This document shows positions 33,001 to 42,000 of a DNA stretch of 64,000 nucleotides, one piece after another. Position numbers: made by a program. Each line of letters opens with the position of its first letter. Within the stretch, counting starts at the first letter, position 1. This DNA is from Fervidicoccaceae archaeon. GTDB lineage: Archaea > Thermoproteota > Thermoprotei_A > Sulfolobales > Fervidicoccaceae. Location of the stretch: assembly GCA_038734945.1 (NCBI GenBank), contig JAVYOA010000002.1, forward strand, positions 248,001 to 312,000, read 5' to 3'.

Positions 33001-36000
33001 TTCCTTCAGCTTCTTTTCAGCTTCAGTACGAACGCTAGCTGATAGGCTTCCATGATGAACTTCCACATCCTTGTAGCCCAGCTCCCTGAATTTGTAGGAT
33101 AGAAATTCGGCTGTATCCCTAGTGTTTGTGAATAATATTGTGCTTTTTTTCTGCTCCATTATTTTTCTAAGCTCCTTAATCACTTTGTAGTTGATGTCTT
33201 CACTCTCATTTTCTTCAAAGGGGATGGAGCGTACATCGATTATCATTTTCTTCATTTCGTTCTCCTTTATCTCTGCACATTCTGAACAAGAAAGGAGCTT
33301 TTTCACTGTATTGAACTTTGATATAGTTGCAGAAATAGCAACGAGCTGAAAAGAGCCAATTTTTTTCCTCAGTCTCTCGAGAACTACCGAAAGCATTGCT
33401 CCCCTTTCATTCTCAATCAGTTCATGGACCTCGTCTATGACTACCCATCTTATATCGGAAATGATGTTTTTGAAGGCTCTGTGAGTTACTATAATGGAAA
33501 AGCTCTCTGGAGTTGTTATGAACCAGTGATGCTTCCCTTCAGTGAATTCCCTCCTCTCCTTCCTCGATGAATCCCCGTGCCTGACAATGCTTCTCAGACC
33601 CATTTCATTTGATATCTCCCTCATTCTAACATAGATATCTCTATTCAGGGCCCTCATTGGCGTTATATAGACCATCAATGGATTCCCTTTCCAGCTGTTC
33701 TGTTCAACCATCATAGAGAATATTGGGAAAAGCGCTGCTTCGGTTTTTCCGCTACCAGTTGGAGCTGATATTATTACGCTCTTTCCCATGAGTATCAGTG
33801 GTATTGACTTCTCCTGAATCGGAGTTGGTTTAATGTATCCGTATTTTTCGAGAACTGCCTGTAGTTTTGGATGCAGGTCTCTGAAGACTTCCGAGCTCTT
33901 AAGCACCTTTCCGAACCTCTGAATTTTTGGAATTTTTTCGAAGCAATAGCAGCATCGAATTTTTATTTTCATTTTTCAGAATATTAATCTGAGTCCATTG
34001 TAAAAACAAGCACATTTTCAGGTGAGAAAAATGAAAGTTCTAATAGCTGGAGGTGCTGGCTTTCTTGGATATGAAGCAGCAAAGCACTTCGCGAAAAAGG
34101 GGCATAAAGTAATATTGTTAGATCCAGCAGCAAATCAGAATCAAATTTTGAGCGAAAATGTTGAGATAATTTCCGATTCTATAAAAAACATAGAGAATTT
34201 TGGAAATTCTATTGGAAAGACTGACCTAATAATTCACTCAGCCTGGGATTTTACCGAAGATGTTAAAAGAAGCATCAACGAGAATCTTCTAGGAACTCTG
34301 TCACTAGCGGAGTTCGCTCTGAGCTCTGGCTCCCGAAGGTTTGTTTTCTACAGCAGCTCAGTTATCTATGGAAAGCCTGTTTCCATTCCTATTGCTGAGG
34401 AGCATCCTTTGAATGTGGAGGAATCAAGGGCCCCTCTCCATGCACTATTGAAGCTATATACGGAGAAGCTTCTCTTGCATTACCACGCTTATAAGCATCT
34501 TCCTTTGACCATCTTCAGGATTTGGTGGAGCTTCAATGATGAGAGAGCTCCTGGAAAAACATACAGAGAAATTTTGGCAAAAATCAAGAAAGGAGAAAGG
34601 ATCGAGGTCCCTGCCGGAGCAGGGGGAAGCATAGTCTATGCTCCCGATCTTTCTCTGGCAGCAGAAAAGGCACTAGAAACAGAAGAAGCGAATGGAAAGA
34701 TATTCAATGCTGTGAGCTTCTTTTTTGAATGGAGTGAAGTGCTAAGGAAAATAGCAGAGAGAGTGGGCTCTAGGTCAGAAATTGTTGAAACTAGAGGCGA
34801 ATGGAATGGACCAGGATTTCTAGAAGGAAGATGGCAGCTCGATGACTCAAAGATGAGAAGAATTCTTAACATAAATGTAGATGCAAATGAGAGGGAAAAG
34901 AAGTTCATCGAAGTCTCCCTAAAGATGCTGGAAAAGCTTCCATAGTCCTGACTTTACTCATCTGAAAGCTCATTTCTAAGAACTATGTTTTTTTTCCCTG
35001 TCCTAAAAAAGTGAAAATCCTTCAGAAGAGGGAGTTAAAAAAAATTATTTTTGTGCGGGCTGTGTTGGCTGGGCAGGAGGAGTAGGAATAGCTGCTGCTT
35101 TTTTCTTCGGCTTCTTTAGAATCCATGGATTAACGAGTACTGCTGCTATCAAAGCTCCAATGCCAAGGCCAATTATAGAGTATGTGTATGTTCCAAAGGT
35201 AACAAGCAGCCATGCTGTTATGTATCCTGAAATAAGCCCTCCCCAGCTCTTTGCTGTGTAAGTTATACCATAGTTGGTGGTAGCATATCTTGGACCGTAG
35301 AAGTCCCCTATAAATGCTGGATTGAAAGCGAAGACTGCCCCTGCAAATAGCATTGCGAGAACTACGAAGGCAGCAAACCCGGTTGGATTGGTGGCCGTTA
35401 GACCAAGAGCTATCATGAAAACTCCAGCTAGAGCATAGAATAGAGTTGCAGTGAGTTGCCTCCCAATATAATCGGAGATCCATCCTCCAAGTATTCTGCT
35501 AAATCCATTTGCCAGAGGATATGCTACCAAGACAAAGTTCAATATTGTTGCGGGAATCTTGTTCTCCTTAGCCATAGGTTTCACTTGCGCACCAAACAGT
35601 AGAGCGATTGCTGCTACTATTGTGAAAGAAATGTAGATCAGCCACCACTGTGGGGTCTTTAGCATTTCATACCATTTCCAGTTCACTGTATCCTCCTTCT
35701 TCTCCTCTTTCTTTTCTTCCTTCTTTTCCTCCGTCTTTTGCTGCTTCTGCTGTTGCTGCTGTACGAACTCAGGGTACTTGTAGAAGAATGTAAAAGGCAA
35801 TATGAATATCAACATCAGAATTCCAACATATAGAAAGGCGGTTTTTGTTCCATAGTTAGTAATCCATGCCTGGAAGGGTAAGTTGAATATTGCTGTTCCA
35901 GCACCGAAGCCGAAGGTTACAATTCCAGTTGCCAGTCCTCTTCTGTCAGGGAACCACTTCACTGCTGTTGCTGCTGACATCCCATAGAGCATGCCTACCC

Positions 36001-39000: not shown

Positions 39001-42000
39001 AAGCATAGTATACTTCTGGATTCCAGAACTCACCAGTGAACTCTGGGAGCTCGATTTCCCTCTTTATCTTCCTGGCCATCTCTGTTTCTTCAGCAAGAAC
39101 ATGAACCTCCTTGACAGAAGCAGCTTCATATCCCTTCCTTACCGATTCCTTCTTTTTCTCCTTTCCTAGAACATCAAGTGCGCTGAGCAAGGAATCGAGG
39201 TCCACCCTATCCCAGGCTCTTGCCAAGGCTCCAAGCATCGGATAGGCAATTGCTGAATCTATCTTGGCTGCGCTTATTGTTACAACTTTTCCGAACCAGT
39301 CCTGCGCCAAGTTGTACTTCTTCACCAATCTCACTACATCATCTGGAGATATTGATGTGTTCACAAGGAGAACTGCATCCTTCTTGGCTCCATCAAAAAG
39401 AAGGGCTCTCTGCGAAGTCTTTTGCAATAGCAGGCTGGAGCTGAATACTGCTATCACGTTAAAGAGCTCTCCAACTGGCTCAACCTCCTCGTGCAGAAGA
39501 ACAGGGACCTTTGGCTTTCCGAAAACTGTGTAGAATATCATTGGAATGTAGTTTCGCTCGGGGCTGTCGTCATACCTCATGTAGTAATACGTTTCTATTC
39601 CTTTCACCGATCCTGCTTGCGCTAGAGTCTGCGAGAAGGATGTCATGTCTGCTGTATGGTCCACGCCCAGTCCATGTGCTATTACCCAATCAAGCTCTTC
39701 GTATTCTGGATATCTTTCCACTTTTGGTGTAACCCTCACTAATTTTACTGGCAAATTTTCACCTCGCTTTATTAGTGTAAATAATTTATTATAAATGAAA
39801 ATCGCATGATTTTCCGCTGTTGATTCAATAATAATAAAAATTTATAATATTTTATAATTTTTAAAAAAATAAAACTAAAAAGAAAAATTAATTTTTTAGA
39901 AATAAAAATAAAACTTCTCATTCCTCAAACTTTTTATTCCCCTATAAAATAAAGAAACATTGTCACGGCTTCTTGGAAGGAGTGATAGCTTTGAGTGAGG
40001 AGGAGGAAGTGGAGGAGGAAAGCACACAGGAAATTGTGGAGGAGACGGAGCGCGCAGCAGAAAGCGAGGCAGAAGAAGAACTGGAAGTTACTCCTGAAGA
40101 TATGAAGGTAATGGTAGATATAATAGAGAAGATAGAAGAAGCGTATGAGGGAAAGCTATCTTCAAAGGAGCTAGAGAACATATACAAGACAAAGGCCGAA
40201 AAAAAGGTGAAGGAAAAGGAGAGGAAAGAAAGAAAGAAGAAAAAATGACTTTTTATTTATATTAGATACTCAAAGACTCTTCTTCCTCTATAGCTGTATA
40301 TGATTGTCTTGACTGCCATAACTTCCTCAATGCTGTAGGCTATACTCTCTCTTCCAATGCCACTCTCCTTTCTCCCGCCATACGGATAATACCCTATTCC
40401 ATGCCTTGGTATATCATTGACATAAATTGCTCCATATTCAAGATATCTTATCAGCTTTCTAATTCTGTTTATATCCTTTCCAAAAATTGATGCATCTAAT
40501 CCAAAGCGTCTGTTGTTAGCTAGCCTTATTGCCTCATCATCGTTTTCATATTCAAATATGATTGCTACTGGCGCAAAAATTTCCTCCTTGTAGAGGAGAA
40601 TATCATTTAGCTTGCTTTTATCGCTTATTTCTATTAATGTGGGTTCCACATAGTTTCCGCCCAGCCTTTTTCCCCCATAGAGGATCCTCCCTCCCTTTTG
40701 AACTGCATCCTCAATCCCTCTCATCATATCCTCAACTGCTTCAGCAGAAATTAGAGGCCCCATTGTTACGCTGGGATCCCTGGGATCTCCTATCTTCACC
40801 TTTGAAAGGTTCTCCACTATCTTATTTTTCAGCTGTTCAAATATGGAGGTGTGAGAGATTATCATTTTAATAGCATCGCATCTCTGTCCAGCATAGCTGT
40901 ATATGCCGGCTGCTATTAGCCTCGCAGCATCATCTATCTCTGCATCTGGAAGAACTATAGCTGGATCCCCTCCGCCTAGCTCCATCAAGTACTGCTTAAT
41001 TCCTCCAACCTTCAGAACTCTTTTCCCAGTCTCACTGCTTCCAGTTAAGCTTATTACTCCAATTCTACTATCAGCTACAATTCCATCCATCTCACTTCCT
41101 GGAACGGTTATTACCATTAAAGATTCTCTTGGAAAGCCTGAAGCCTCAGCCACCCTCGCAAAGAGAATGGAGGGAACTGGAACCTGTGTTGGAGGCTTTA
41201 TTATTACAGCATTTCCTGCTATTGCGCTGTACGTGAATTTAGCTACTGTATCGAACAAAGGATAGTTGAACGGAGAAATTGCAAGGACAATCCCATAGGG
41301 CTCTTTCCTTACAATGCTCTCAGTTTCCAATGTGGACTGGTCCCAATCGCCTGGTATATAGTCACCATACATCTTTCTGAGATCCAGCTCTGACCTCCTC
41401 AGCCTCTCAATGCTCGCATTTACCTCCCCGCTAGCCTGCTCCCTAGTTTTTCCTGCTCCTATTATGAGAGAATCTATGAATATGTTTTTGTGCTCCTCGA
41501 TGAGCTCAGCCATTTTCTCGAGATATTTCATCCTCTTATATCCTGGAGTATTTCTTATCTTCCACCTACCGCTCTCATGCAGTTCCTTTATGTAGGGCTC
41601 GACTTCCTCATATGTGAGCCTTGGAACAGTTCCTACTACACTTCCATCTATTGGAGAATATATTTTCTGCTCATTCTTTCCAAAGATCCATCTTCCAGCA
41701 AGATATGCTCTGTATCTCCTCATCCCTTCTCTTTCTTCGAATGCTGGCGAGAAGAATTCTTCGCTCATCTTGGCTTCCCTTTTTTAATTTTAAATTGTGT
41801 AAGAATATAAAAATTTAATAAAATTTTTGCTAAAAATTTTGCTTTTTTAGGCGCCGGGGGCGGGATTTGAACCCGCGCTCCCCCAATGGGGAACTGGCTC
41901 ACCAGCTCTGTCTCCAGGCCAGCCCCTTAGTCCGCTCGGGCACCCCGGCTCAATATTTTACTTCACCCTTCCTCAAAGCTTCGTCTGCTTCCTCCAAGTC

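Follow-up and report, generated by a model that had tools for sequence, protein, structure and literature searches.

The oxalate oxidoreductase (OOR) of Moorella thermoacetica (PDB 5c4i, 5exd, and 5exe; NCBIfam NF045790-NF045792) is a 2-oxoacid:ferredoxin oxidoreductase (OFOR) of three subunits in which a ferredoxin domain is fused to domain III. The passage of PMC5020499 to which the earlier note on this DNA referred indeed describes the roles of Arg31, Arg109, Asp116, and the YPIRP motif: the arginine of this motif occupies the place of pyruvate's methyl group, while Asp116 is important for a bait-and-switch mechanism. The archaeal pyruvate and 2-oxoisovalerate enzymes (Por/Vor; e.g., PDB 9bt4) share the superfamily, the cofactors, and the alpha and beta folds with the enzyme described here but are composed of four subunits, with a YPITP motif and with a gamma subunit carrying a glycine-rich GRGGQG and a delta subunit that are separate. 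The P-loop of domain III binds CoA, as stated in the relevant part of PMC8091585.

Among transporters of the major facilitator superfamily (MFS), the oxalate:formate antiporter OxlT of Oxalobacter formigenes (PDB 8hpj/8hpk; TIGR04259) surrounds its oxalate site with a first shell of Gln34, Tyr35, Tyr124, Arg272, and Lys355, whose roles are described in PMC10070484. The L-lactate transporter SfMCT of Syntrophobacter fumaroxidans (PDB 6g9x; NF049980) has equivalents of Arg272 and Tyr35/Tyr124, yet displays Cys at the position of Lys355 and Leu at that of Gln34. Here, we describe four genes of a Fervidicoccaceae archaeon that seem, as judged from their sequences, to form an OOR-like system with oxalate as its likely substrate.

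A four-gene locus

The window, i.e., the whole stretch of 64,000 nucleotides that was analyzed, carries four intact open reading frames at 35045-39754, all on the minus strand and exactly where the earlier note had placed them (Table 1). The genes for beta and alpha overlap by 4 nt. The transporter gene may have a promoter of its own, to which the T-run and the TATA-like boxes of the spacer point; one 388-nt contig of an RNA library from a 96%-identical relative covers this spacer, which is weak evidence. A type III RuBisCO gene lies 2.9 kb from the operon. Neither RuBisCO nor GAPN showed a conserved association with the operon among the related loci examined.

Table 1. Features of the locus in window coordinates.
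Feature	Position	Strand	Description
Subunit "delta"	38615-39754	-	379 aa, TTG start; fusion of OFOR domain III with ferredoxin domain V (2x[4Fe-4S])
Subunit alpha	37369-38604	-	411 aa; comprises domains I and II (side that binds the TPP pyrimidine)
YPIRP motif	38470-38484	-	alpha residues 41-45; Arg44 = Moorella Arg31
Switch/plug-loop equivalent RALDDPGNFG	38212-38241	-	alpha residues 122-131
Subunit beta	36413-37372	-	319 aa; domain VI, GDG TPP-binding motif, four Cys (proximal cluster)
Beta-MFS spacer	36335-36412	-	T-run immediately past the beta stop codon; TATA-like AT-rich boxes
OFA-family MFS transporter	35045-36334	-	429 aa, TTG start; starts 78 nt after beta
Transporter Arg280	35495-35497	-	corresponds to OxlT Arg272
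Transporter Lys362	35249-35251	-	corresponds to OxlT Lys355

The enzyme subunits resemble oxalate oxidoreductase

The alpha subunit (Pfam POR_N 5.6e-47 and PFOR_II 1.2e-22) and the beta subunit (TPP_enzyme_C 3.6e-17; Cys26/29/54/228 and GGDG) both have the Moorella enzyme as their best match in the PDB. Alpha hits 5c4i_A at 1.6e-91 and the best pyruvate enzyme, 9bt4_B, at 8.6e-62, precisely the values reported before, and beta hits 5c4i_C at 1.7e-96 with 5e-62 for the runner-up; Por/Vor enzymes are the second-best matches throughout. The top NCBIfam family of alpha is likewise OxalOxredalpha, followed by PorA_Arch at 303 bits. All three subunits nevertheless score below the OOR equivalog cut-offs, with 357.8 bits for alpha (cut-off 500), 375.6 for beta against OxalOxredbeta (590), and 102 for the "delta" subunit (230).

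This subunit, encoded first in the operon, is recognized by Pfam through Fer4 families only (residues 302-359) and contains two CxxCxxCxxxCP motifs, which start at residue 309 and residue 336. Domain III can hardly be recognized from its sequence (16.7 bits), and the phmmer match to 5c4i_B (2.2e-19) covers the N-terminal part weakly. However, an AF2 model (pLDDT 78, pTM 0.80) finds the OOR delta chains of 5c4i/5exd/5exe as best matches (E ~1e-20, TM target 0.75-0.80) ahead of PorC 2raa (4.7e-12), so that the subunit is predicted to fold like OOR delta, albeit with 379 aa compared to 315 aa in Moorella. In place of GRGGQG, which the gamma subunits of the genome's own Por/Vor loci (L014 and L015) carry next to a separate delta gene, the protein reads HGLGVDHT, and the aligned stretch of Moorella delta is similarly degenerate.

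The two arginines noted before were both found in alpha: Arg44 within YPIRP and Arg122, the equivalent of Arg109. YPIRP is kept in 121/121 close relatives but occurs in only one of the six POR_N loci of the genome, as had been claimed; three others have YPITP and two encode proteins of 630-637 aa with YPGTP. The switch loop has the same length and pattern as in Moorella (R-x-L-D-x-P-G-x-F-G), with Asp125 matching Asp112. It does differ in that Asp126 replaces Pro113 and, three residues further on and as already noted, Asn129 replaces Asp116. The Asp116 position holds Asn, Ala, or Ser in every archaeal subclade that we inspected. Positions 113 and 116 co-vary, and exactly one acidic residue is present at them in 281/282 loops. 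The acidic residue of the switch loop thus seems to have been relocated rather than lost, and Asp126 would take over the role of Moorella Asp116.

A sister clade of the Moorella type

A careful IQ-TREE phylogeny of 59 alpha subunits (36 of YPITP type, 22 with YPIRP, and one long-branch oddity) separates YPITP from YPIRP sequences at 100/99, with the oddity on the YPIRP side and the genome's own Por/Vor alphas on the other. A quick tree of 111 alpha subunits repeated this split (98 SH-aLRT). Within the YPIRP clade, of which Moorella OOR is the sole characterized member type, the archaeal subclades are united at 99/94 and sister to the Moorella type (97/89), whose proxy in the tree (P0128) matches 5c4i_A at 1.4e-152.

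Fifteen positions of alpha (R44, Y46, M50, Q75, G92, G95, V96, A101, D125, G128, F130, G131, E133, W149, and P267) show conservation of 85% or more among 18 YPIRP sequences, are the same in all three subclades, and occur in at most 10% of 92 YPITP sequences. Six further positions of beta are shared by at least 19/20 YPIRP-type but 0/6 YPITP-type proteins. The Moorella enzyme has all of these signatures. The earlier description of the locus as an orthologue of Moorella OOR rather than of Por/Vor is therefore upheld by clade, architecture, and the missing GRGGQG, but overstates the closeness: with about 42-43% identity between the alpha subunits and scores below the cut-offs, the enzyme represents a sister clade of Moorella-type OOR, neither nested within it nor a close orthologue. 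Such a sister position would allow for a switch of substrate when the two types diverged.

An OxlT-like transporter linked to the enzyme

The fourth gene product (MFS_1 2.4e-50) is closest in the PDB to OxlT (8hpj_A, 7.4e-48), as the earlier note had it, followed by the lactate transporter 6g9x_A (5.8e-40). The NCBIfam models are less decisive, since SfMCT (293 bits) comes slightly before 2A0111 (287) and OxlT (281 vs. a cut-off of 335), all below cut-off. Yet the first shell of OxlT is kept 5/5, including the Lys and Gln that SfMCT lacks, and so is Asn268. The second shell differs (Y150F, W324A, Y328F, and W352Y), although positions 150, 328, and 352 are still aromatic, and W324A enlarges the modeled pocket in the window's group; transporters of other subclades retain Trp324. 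Gln63 and Gln66 are Thr and Ala, and the central loop contains a lysine/glutamate-rich insert not found in OxlT.

OFA-like transporters with both basic residues lie within 2.5 kb of YPIRP operons at 5/9 informative loci of the window's subclade and in f27 (4/4) and f5 loci (3/3), i.e., across three archaeal subclades about 45% identical, though these proteins are merely 24-37% identical to the window's. Among bacterial Moorella-type loci with at least 5.5 kb downstream, 21/41 have such a transporter, and the single bacterial one scanned (L066) exceeds the OxlT equivalog cut-off (471.8 vs. 335). Conversely, no such transporter was found near the enzyme in any of 9 f16 loci, and homologues at E<=1e-10 were absent from three enzyme-encoding genomes, i.e., one of f16 as well as G054 (99% complete) and G295 (98%). 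The latter two belong to the same family and are the closest relatives searched.

Oxalate and its alternatives

We propose that the transporter would import a small dicarboxylate, most likely oxalate, which would then be held between Arg44 and Arg122 of a TPP- and 3x[4Fe-4S]-dependent enzyme. Decarboxylation on TPP without coenzyme A would yield 2 CO2, with two electrons passing through the enzyme's clusters to ferredoxin, and reduced ferredoxin could be re-oxidized by group-4 hydrogenase-like complexes or respiratory reductases of the genome. This would be oxidation of oxalate to CO2 in a hot-spring archaeon, a capacity not described for archaea. The idea of CoA-independent oxidation of imported oxalate fits the enzyme and the site residues of the transporter, but oxalate:formate exchange is unlikely because we found no formate-producing enzyme in the genome. 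Members of the formyl-CoA transferase family were also not found in this 99.95%-complete genome, which speaks against the classical oxalyl-CoA route as another way to handle oxalate and removes it from the alternatives.

Against oxalate we count the scores below cut-off, the identity of about 42-43%, the transporter-free relatives, the second-shell changes, and the replacement of Asp116 in every archaeal-type sequence. They leave some room for a reading that we consider rather unlikely, in which a CoA-independent OOR-like enzyme and its dicarboxylate/anion transporter handle another small, anionic 2-oxo substrate (e.g., glyoxylate, oxamate, mesoxalate, or oxaloacetate) and the altered switch loop reflects altered chemistry. 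A clade outside the Moorella type and a wider modeled pocket would suit this reading, and an enzyme without transporter in the nearest relatives and f16 would fit an endogenous metabolite. However, an arginine at the place of pyruvate's methyl group favors a negative group on C2, judging from the active-site passage of PMC5020499, and the 21 signature positions are those of the Moorella type. The linked transporters moreover retain both basic residues for oxalate's two carboxylates, Trp324 is kept outside the window's group, and the loop's acidic residue seems to have moved.

An ordinary CoA-dependent OFOR for pyruvate or branched-chain 2-oxoacids, adjoined by chance by an unrelated lactate/pyruvate transporter, is quite improbable even though PorA_Arch and SfMCT score as they do and all source annotations that we read for clade members say pyruvate ferredoxin oxidoreductase. 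The Thr of YPITP has become Arg, GRGGQG is gone, the tree splits the enzyme from all YPITP enzymes, PorA_Arch falls far short of its cut-off (550), the transporter has Lys where SfMCT has Cys, and its linkage is kept across divergent subclades. Furthermore, the genome already has canonical Por/Vor enzymes of four subunits at two loci, as well as an OFOR of two subunits. Very doubtful, finally, is a reductive or non-catabolic role (e.g., making a C2 acid from CO2, detoxification, or keeping the redox balance) with export of the product. OFORs are reversible as a family according to a passage of PMC13768988. A RuBisCO gene is close by, and aerobic Sulfolobaceae, with no obvious need for ferredoxin-linked oxalate catabolism, carry the enzyme as well; but the RuBisCO and GAPN adjacency is not conserved among the related loci compared, and reduction of CO2 to oxalate is very unfavorable.

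Distribution of the enzyme

The enzyme type is not peculiar to this archaeon. The YPIRP clade is very large and includes Sulfolobaceae, Bathyarchaeia, Thermoplasmatota, and many bacteria. Orthologues in other archaea, which the earlier note had mentioned, were recovered in a Fervidicoccaceae MAG (92% identity), Fervidicoccus fontis (85%), Thermoplasmatota (74-76%), and Methanomethylicia (69%).

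An oxidoreductase operon with an arginine-type active site

The four genes of the operon are predicted to encode a complete TPP/three-cluster 2-oxoacid:ferredoxin oxidoreductase (OFOR), consisting of a first subunit (P0001), alpha (P0002) and beta (P0003), followed by an OFA-family MFS transporter (P0004). They lie in a genome of 1.34 Mb that is 99.95% complete, and the closest named relatives are a Fervidicoccaceae MAG (92% identity) and Fervidicoccus fontis (85%). The sequence of alpha bears out what the earlier note had read from it, i.e., YPIRP with Arg44 and a loop RALDDPGNFG with Arg122 and with Asn129 in place of Asp116 of the Moorella oxalate oxidoreductase (OOR), and the PDB E-values were reproduced exactly. 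The genome has six POR_N loci, and YPIRP is, as had been claimed, confined to the one described here; three others carry YPITP and two YPGTP.

Operon genes and upstream neighbors in window coordinates
Feature	Length (aa)	Coordinates	Strand	Remarks
P0001, first subunit	379	39754-38615	-	intact ORF; Pfam only ferredoxin-type 4Fe-4S families, residues 302-359; two CxxCxxCxxxCP motifs
P0002, alpha	411	38604-37369	-	intact ORF; Pfam POR_N and PFOR_II
P0003, beta	319	37372-36413	-	intact ORF; 4-nt overlap with P0002; Pfam TPP_enzyme_C; four Cys and GGDG
P0004, transporter	429	36334-35045	-	intact ORF after 78-nt AT-rich spacer; Pfam MFS_1
Archaeal non-phosphorylating GAPN		40257-41768	-	directly upstream of operon, same strand
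Nucleotidyl transferase		41950-42654	-	upstream of operon, same strand
Type III RuBisCO large subunit		42704-44041	-	upstream of operon, same strand

Arg44 takes the place of the threonine in YPITP and corresponds to Arg31 of the Moorella alpha subunit; a passage of PMC5020499 describes the role of the YPIRP arginine in substrate binding by OOR. Arg122, aligned to Moorella Arg109 by phmmer, is invariant in alignment A1. Beyond these residues, alpha proteins with YPIRP (Arg-type) share a signature of 15 positions (R44, Y46, M50, Q75, G92, G95, V96, A101, D125, G128, F130, G131, E133, W149 and P267) that are at least 85% conserved in 18 Arg-type rows, identical across three subclades, and found in at most 10% of 92 rows with YPITP (Thr-type, as in Por/Vor enzymes). 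Beta likewise has six such positions (T25, Y56, N59, Q76, F164 and K230), each found in 19 or all of the 20 Arg-type betas compared and in none of a small set of six Thr-type betas.

The genes around the operon, i.e., GAPN, nucleotidyl transferase, type III RuBisCO, an epimerase and an Lhr helicase, have no relation to oxalate. The upstream aldehyde dehydrogenase scores 810.5 bits as archaeal GAPN, above the cut-off of 780, and was on that ground rejected as a source of oxalate from glyoxylate. Two studies of hot springs have metagenome runs that contain nearly identical DNA, and one of them is possibly the source. The small match shares in seawater and manure runs have no bearing on habitat. 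One RNA-library run yielded eight pieces, namely seven contigs (234-466 nt, ca. 95-99% alike) over 36144-39134, one of them spanning the spacer between beta and the MFS gene, and 34 nt out of a longer one; we do not count these as expression because the library may contain DNA, a silent control stretch is lacking and the flanks have no depth. A raw-read metatranscriptome gave no reads on the locus with ca. 3% of the run sampled, which is no test of transcription. Sites in a bacterial sigma-70 promoter and terminator scan were no more numerous than in shuffled sequence, and archaea are outside the scope of that model.

A sister clade of the Moorella enzyme

In NCBIfam each of the three subunits scores best with an OOR equivalog model and less well with Por/Vor models, although the OOR scores are below the curated cut-offs (NF045791, 357.8 against 500 bits; NF045792, 375.6 against 590; NF045790, 102.4 against 230). 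The marks of Por/Vor enzymes are absent, in that alpha scores 303.1 bits with PorA_Arch against a cut-off of 550, has YPIRP rather than YPITP, and is accompanied by a fused subunit devoid of GRGGQG rather than by a separate gamma subunit. We file the enzyme as an OOR-like variant from a sister clade of the Moorella type; Asp116 is replaced and the cut-offs are missed, which keeps it out of the OOR equivalog family.

This placement draws on two alpha trees. The 150 best matches to alpha among 1.84 billion cluster representatives comprise 28 proteins with YPIRP, 3 with FPIRP, 75 with YPITP, 15 with FPITP, 10 with another motif and 19 with none. The 96 of them that are 350-470 aa long (54 were dropped by length) entered a quick tree of 111 rows together with the query, two paralogs from the same genome, four bacterial loci and eight close archaeal matches, and in this tree a branch with 98% SH-aLRT support has all 18 Arg-type rows and the long-branch protein P0155 on one side. 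The first quick trees included the Logan-derived proteins P0139, P0153 and P0169, which we omitted from a more careful tree because their C-terminal parts are frameshifted. That tree of 59 rows (22 clean Arg-type proteins, P0155 and 36 Thr-type proteins, of which 6 are own or bacterial, 8 chosen and 22 randomly drawn) separates Arg-type from Thr-type with support of 100/99, unites three "archaeal-type" subclades at 99/94 and places these as sister to the Moorella type at 97/89, with the bootstrap not fully settled. The genome's own Por/Vor alphas (loci L014 and L015) sit among the Thr-type rows. Moorella is represented in the trees by a proxy, P0128, that matches the OOR alpha chain 5c4i_A at 1.4e-152 and whose cluster includes members named "oxalate oxidoreductase subunit alpha" by IMG. 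P0155 itself, a cluster representative of 430 aa on a long branch at the base of the YPIRP clade, has YPENP instead of YPIRP and a loop RVLDQPGSFG, and may be a further substrate variant.

The first subunit and its predicted CoA site

Only the ferredoxin domain of P0001 is clearly recognizable by sequence, and its N-terminal 285 residues match Moorella OOR delta with merely 16.7 bits. AlphaFold2, given an alignment of 18 relatives, yields a model (pLDDT 78, pTM 0.80) whose first matches are the eight OOR delta chains (E 1.4e-20 to 4.8e-18, target TM 0.75-0.80, ca. 340-370 aligned columns), followed by Thermotoga PorC (4.7e-12) and then by domains III-V of one-chain PFORs. These best matches indicate that P0001 is domain III fused to domain V, the arrangement of OOR, and that the enzyme has the three-subunit form in which a single chain provides domain III and the 2x[4Fe-4S] domain V.

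In the two canonical Por/Vor loci of the genome, gamma (with GRGGQG) and delta are separate genes. P0001 and all 17 relatives aligned with it lack GRGGQG and have HGLGV or GRGV/I there without the glycine run, and the aligned stretch of Moorella delta reads GVVMNK. From a passage of PMC8091585 we infer that GRGGQG is the CoA-binding P-loop of domain III, and on this reading the predicted CoA site of P0001 would be degenerate, as in OOR.

Within f16, one of the coded families of our phylum sample, the first subunit is a single ORF in loci L024, L028, L035 and L036 and two ORFs side by side, one for domain III and one for the ferredoxin domain, in L030, L031, L033, L034 and L037; the latter may be a real split or frameshifts of draft assemblies.

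A possibly relocated acidic residue of the switch loop

According to a passage of PMC5020499, Asp116 is important for the bait-and-switch mechanism of OOR. The loop RALDDPGNFG of the window's alpha has the same length and frame as RTLDPPGDFG of Moorella, with Asn129 at the place of Asp116. Among the query and its 120 best matches, 113 proteins have exactly this loop and the remaining 8 differ elsewhere or have serine at position 116 (Moorella numbering), while a second archaeal-type group shows RALDDPGA[FY]G. The replacement of Asp116 is a property of the clade.

We then surveyed 288 Arg-type proteins with a recognizable loop in 282, which are kin and not independent sequences, and found positions 113/116 to be D/A in 133, D/N in 117, P/D in 27, D/S in two, and E/N, G/N and D/V in one each. 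Exactly one of the two positions is acidic in 281 of the 282 loops. Aspartate at 116 occurs only together with proline at 113 (27/282), and the other 255 loops have asparagine, alanine, serine or valine at 116; archaeal-type loops carry aspartate or glutamate at 113 instead of an acidic residue at 116. We hypothesize from this pattern that the acidic switch residue may have been relocated from 116 to 113 rather than lost, and the co-variation of the two positions gives a way to test the bait-and-switch mechanism directly.

A transporter with the two basic residues of OxlT

The best solved relatives of P0004 are the oxalate transporter OxlT of Oxalobacter (7.4e-48) and the lactate transporter SfMCT (5.8e-40). 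The NCBIfam models, all of which score below their cut-offs (SfMCT, 293.3 against 320; OFA TIGR00890, 286.6 against 374.85; OxlT TIGR04259, 281 against 335), do not separate these two options, but the residues of the predicted binding site do. According to passages of PMC10070484, the two carboxylates of oxalate are bound in OxlT by Arg272 and Lys355, the first shell is completed by Gln34, Tyr35 and Tyr124, and a second, aromatic shell consists of Tyr150, Trp324, Tyr328 and Trp352. As aligned by phmmer, P0004 matches the first shell at each of its five positions, with Arg280 and Lys362 as the two basic residues and Gln34, Tyr35 and Tyr124 conserved 3/3, and has Phe, Ala, Phe and Tyr in the second shell (three of four aromatic, none identical to OxlT). 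SfMCT differs from OxlT by a cysteine at the Lys355 position and a leucine at the Gln34 position, and P0004 matches OxlT at both.

P0004 is unlikely to be an oxalate:formate exchanger because we found neither a formate dehydrogenase nor a family III CoA-transferase in the genome; uniport or symport would be likelier. A cycle of oxalate and formate via a CO2-reducing formate dehydrogenase is similarly unsupported, the genome's only two molybdopterin enzymes being NarG of a NarGHJI nitrate reductase and a Psr/Phs-like enzyme. Reduced ferredoxin could be accepted by either of two group-4 hydrogenase/complex-I-like loci. The central cytoplasmic loop of P0004 (residues ca. 193-215; window ca. 35690-35760) contains a low-complexity run (QQQQQKQQK TEEKKEEKKEEKKED), and 35691-35715 was treated as a repeat in read mapping.

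Recurrent linkage of enzyme and transporter

Within the window's subclade, five of nine informative loci have an OFA-like transporter gene after the operon, i.e., the window, L001, L002 and L006 (64-85% identical) and L007 (37%, ca. 850 nt away), and no such gene follows it in L004, L020, L022 and L023; four further contigs, one of which recurs as L021, end too early to judge. In a phylum sample of 401 genomes, 24 have an alpha match at E<=1e-100, and we examined 20 of the 23 others, leaving out three f16 genomes. All 20 loci have YPIRP. An OFA-like MFS gene lies directly downstream in four of four loci of family f27 and within 0.5-2.5 kb in three of three of family f5, and none is found near the operon in the nine f16 loci. 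The f27 and f5 transporters are only 24-37% identical to P0004, a distance at which alignments are less certain, and all linked transporters have a basic residue at 272, Lys355, Tyr35, Tyr124 and aromatic residues at 150, 328 and 352 (OxlT numbering). Lys355 is missing from the single unlinked MFS protein (L023, opposite strand).

Among bacterial Moorella-type metagenome loci, which are close kin of each other, 27 of 80 have a P0004-like MFS gene, and where the contig continues for 5.5 kb or more downstream (41 loci) the gene is present in 21, at 3.2-5.0 kb past the end of alpha. The one such transporter that we scanned, from L066, scores 471.8 and so exceeds the OxlT equivalog cut-off of 335. 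YPIRP enzymes are thus repeatedly paired with two-base OFA transporters in subclades whose alphas are only ca. 42-47% identical to that of the window, and no other indirect argument speaks as strongly for an imported dicarboxylate as their common substrate. Two genomes of the same family (G054 and G295) and one f16 genome have the enzyme and no P0004 homolog at E<=1e-10, so that the substrate must there be made internally or enter otherwise.

The f5 operons with a two-base transporter at 0.5-2.5 kb (L032, L038 and L039) and the Sulfolobaceae proteins P0305-P0314, all of the type with alanine in the switch loop, are annotated as pyruvate ferredoxin oxidoreductase. On the soil metagenome contig of L066, a 619-aa GltD-like NAD(P)-binding flavoprotein (4037-5893) with an OOR-delta-like ferredoxin domain at its C-terminus precedes alpha and replaces the domain III+V subunit, itself preceded by a CDC48-family AAA ATPase (895-3390); ORF sizes are similar in L054 and L077. 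This arrangement may represent an enzyme variant linked to NAD(P).

Substrate and significance

We consider it most likely, with somewhat more than even confidence, that the enzyme works like OOR on imported oxalate. The main rival is that the substrate is a related small anionic 2-oxo acid other than oxalate. The replaced Asp116, the missed equivalog cut-offs and the alanine at the Trp324 position of P0004 would suit this alternative, and Arg44 together with the two basic residues of the linked transporters speaks against it; on balance we think it improbable, though deserving of serious attention. A wider form of the oxalate reading, for which we see the chances as evenly balanced, is that the window's enzyme is one member of a very large unrecognized OOR clade that is annotated everywhere as pyruvate oxidoreductase, has its switch residue moved from 116 to 113 and often comes with its own oxalate importer. 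As part of this same reading, the clade would span Fervidicoccaceae, Sulfolobaceae, the Thermoproteota family f27, Bathyarchaeia, Thermoplasmatota, Methanomethylicia and many bacterial phyla.

Oxalate is among the common low-molecular-weight acids, and to our knowledge only one oxalate:ferredoxin oxidoreductase has been characterized, from an acetogenic bacterium. If this wider reading is true, Archaea gain a CoA-free oxidation of oxalate to CO2 and low-potential electrons, of which we found no published account. If the clade as a whole oxidizes oxalate, many archaeal and bacterial "pyruvate ferredoxin oxidoreductase" genes are mis-annotated, and carbon-flow models of hot springs, sediments and soils gain an oxalate sink that yields low-potential electrons. 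Our literature searches, judged from the papers listed and from passages of PMC5020499, PMC13768988, 10.1101/235028 and PMC12188714, returned no archaeal OOR, and the original OOR papers may already list homologs; searches for the YPIRP motif or for the carrier lineages together with oxalate found no archaeal OOR, and those for Fervidicoccus and oxalate found no literature.

Distribution and spread

The 120 database proteins that match alpha best (63-93% identity) belong to Thermoprotei, Fervidicoccus, Thermoplasmata, Sulfolobales and Bathyarchaeia and are named, where names are given, as pyruvate ferredoxin oxidoreductase, 2-oxoacid:ferredoxin oxidoreductase or transketolase-domain protein. 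The subclade with alanine in the loop includes proteins of aerobic Sulfolobaceae (P0305-P0314; RALDDPGAYG) that NCBI names after Sulfolobus acidocaldarius SUSAZ, Sulfolobus sp. and Metallosphaera, and at ca. 60% identity extends to Chloroflexi, NC10, Nitrospinota and Rokubacteria; all 120 matches of the search with this type have YPIRP. Cultured carriers exist, among them, to judge from protein names, the genetically tractable Sulfolobus acidocaldarius, so the question is testable at once.

Orthologs in Thermoplasmatota, Nitrososphaeria and Methanomethylicia are 69-76% identical (Thermoplasmatota 74-76%), and the alpha and beta genes (window 37000-39000) have a G+C content of 0.48-0.49 against 0.40-0.44 in the flanks. 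High identity across phyla together with the raised G+C content suggests that these genes spread laterally among hot-spring archaea.

Outside the window, contig C9 of the genome carries a complete narI-narG-narH-narJ cluster at ca. 84.6-90.8 kb (L122, 2597-8796), with narG at 1598 bits against a cut-off of 1084 and narH at 738.5 bits. The cultured relative is a fermenter, and nitrate respiration would therefore be unexpected in a 1.34-Mb Fervidicoccaceae-like genome.
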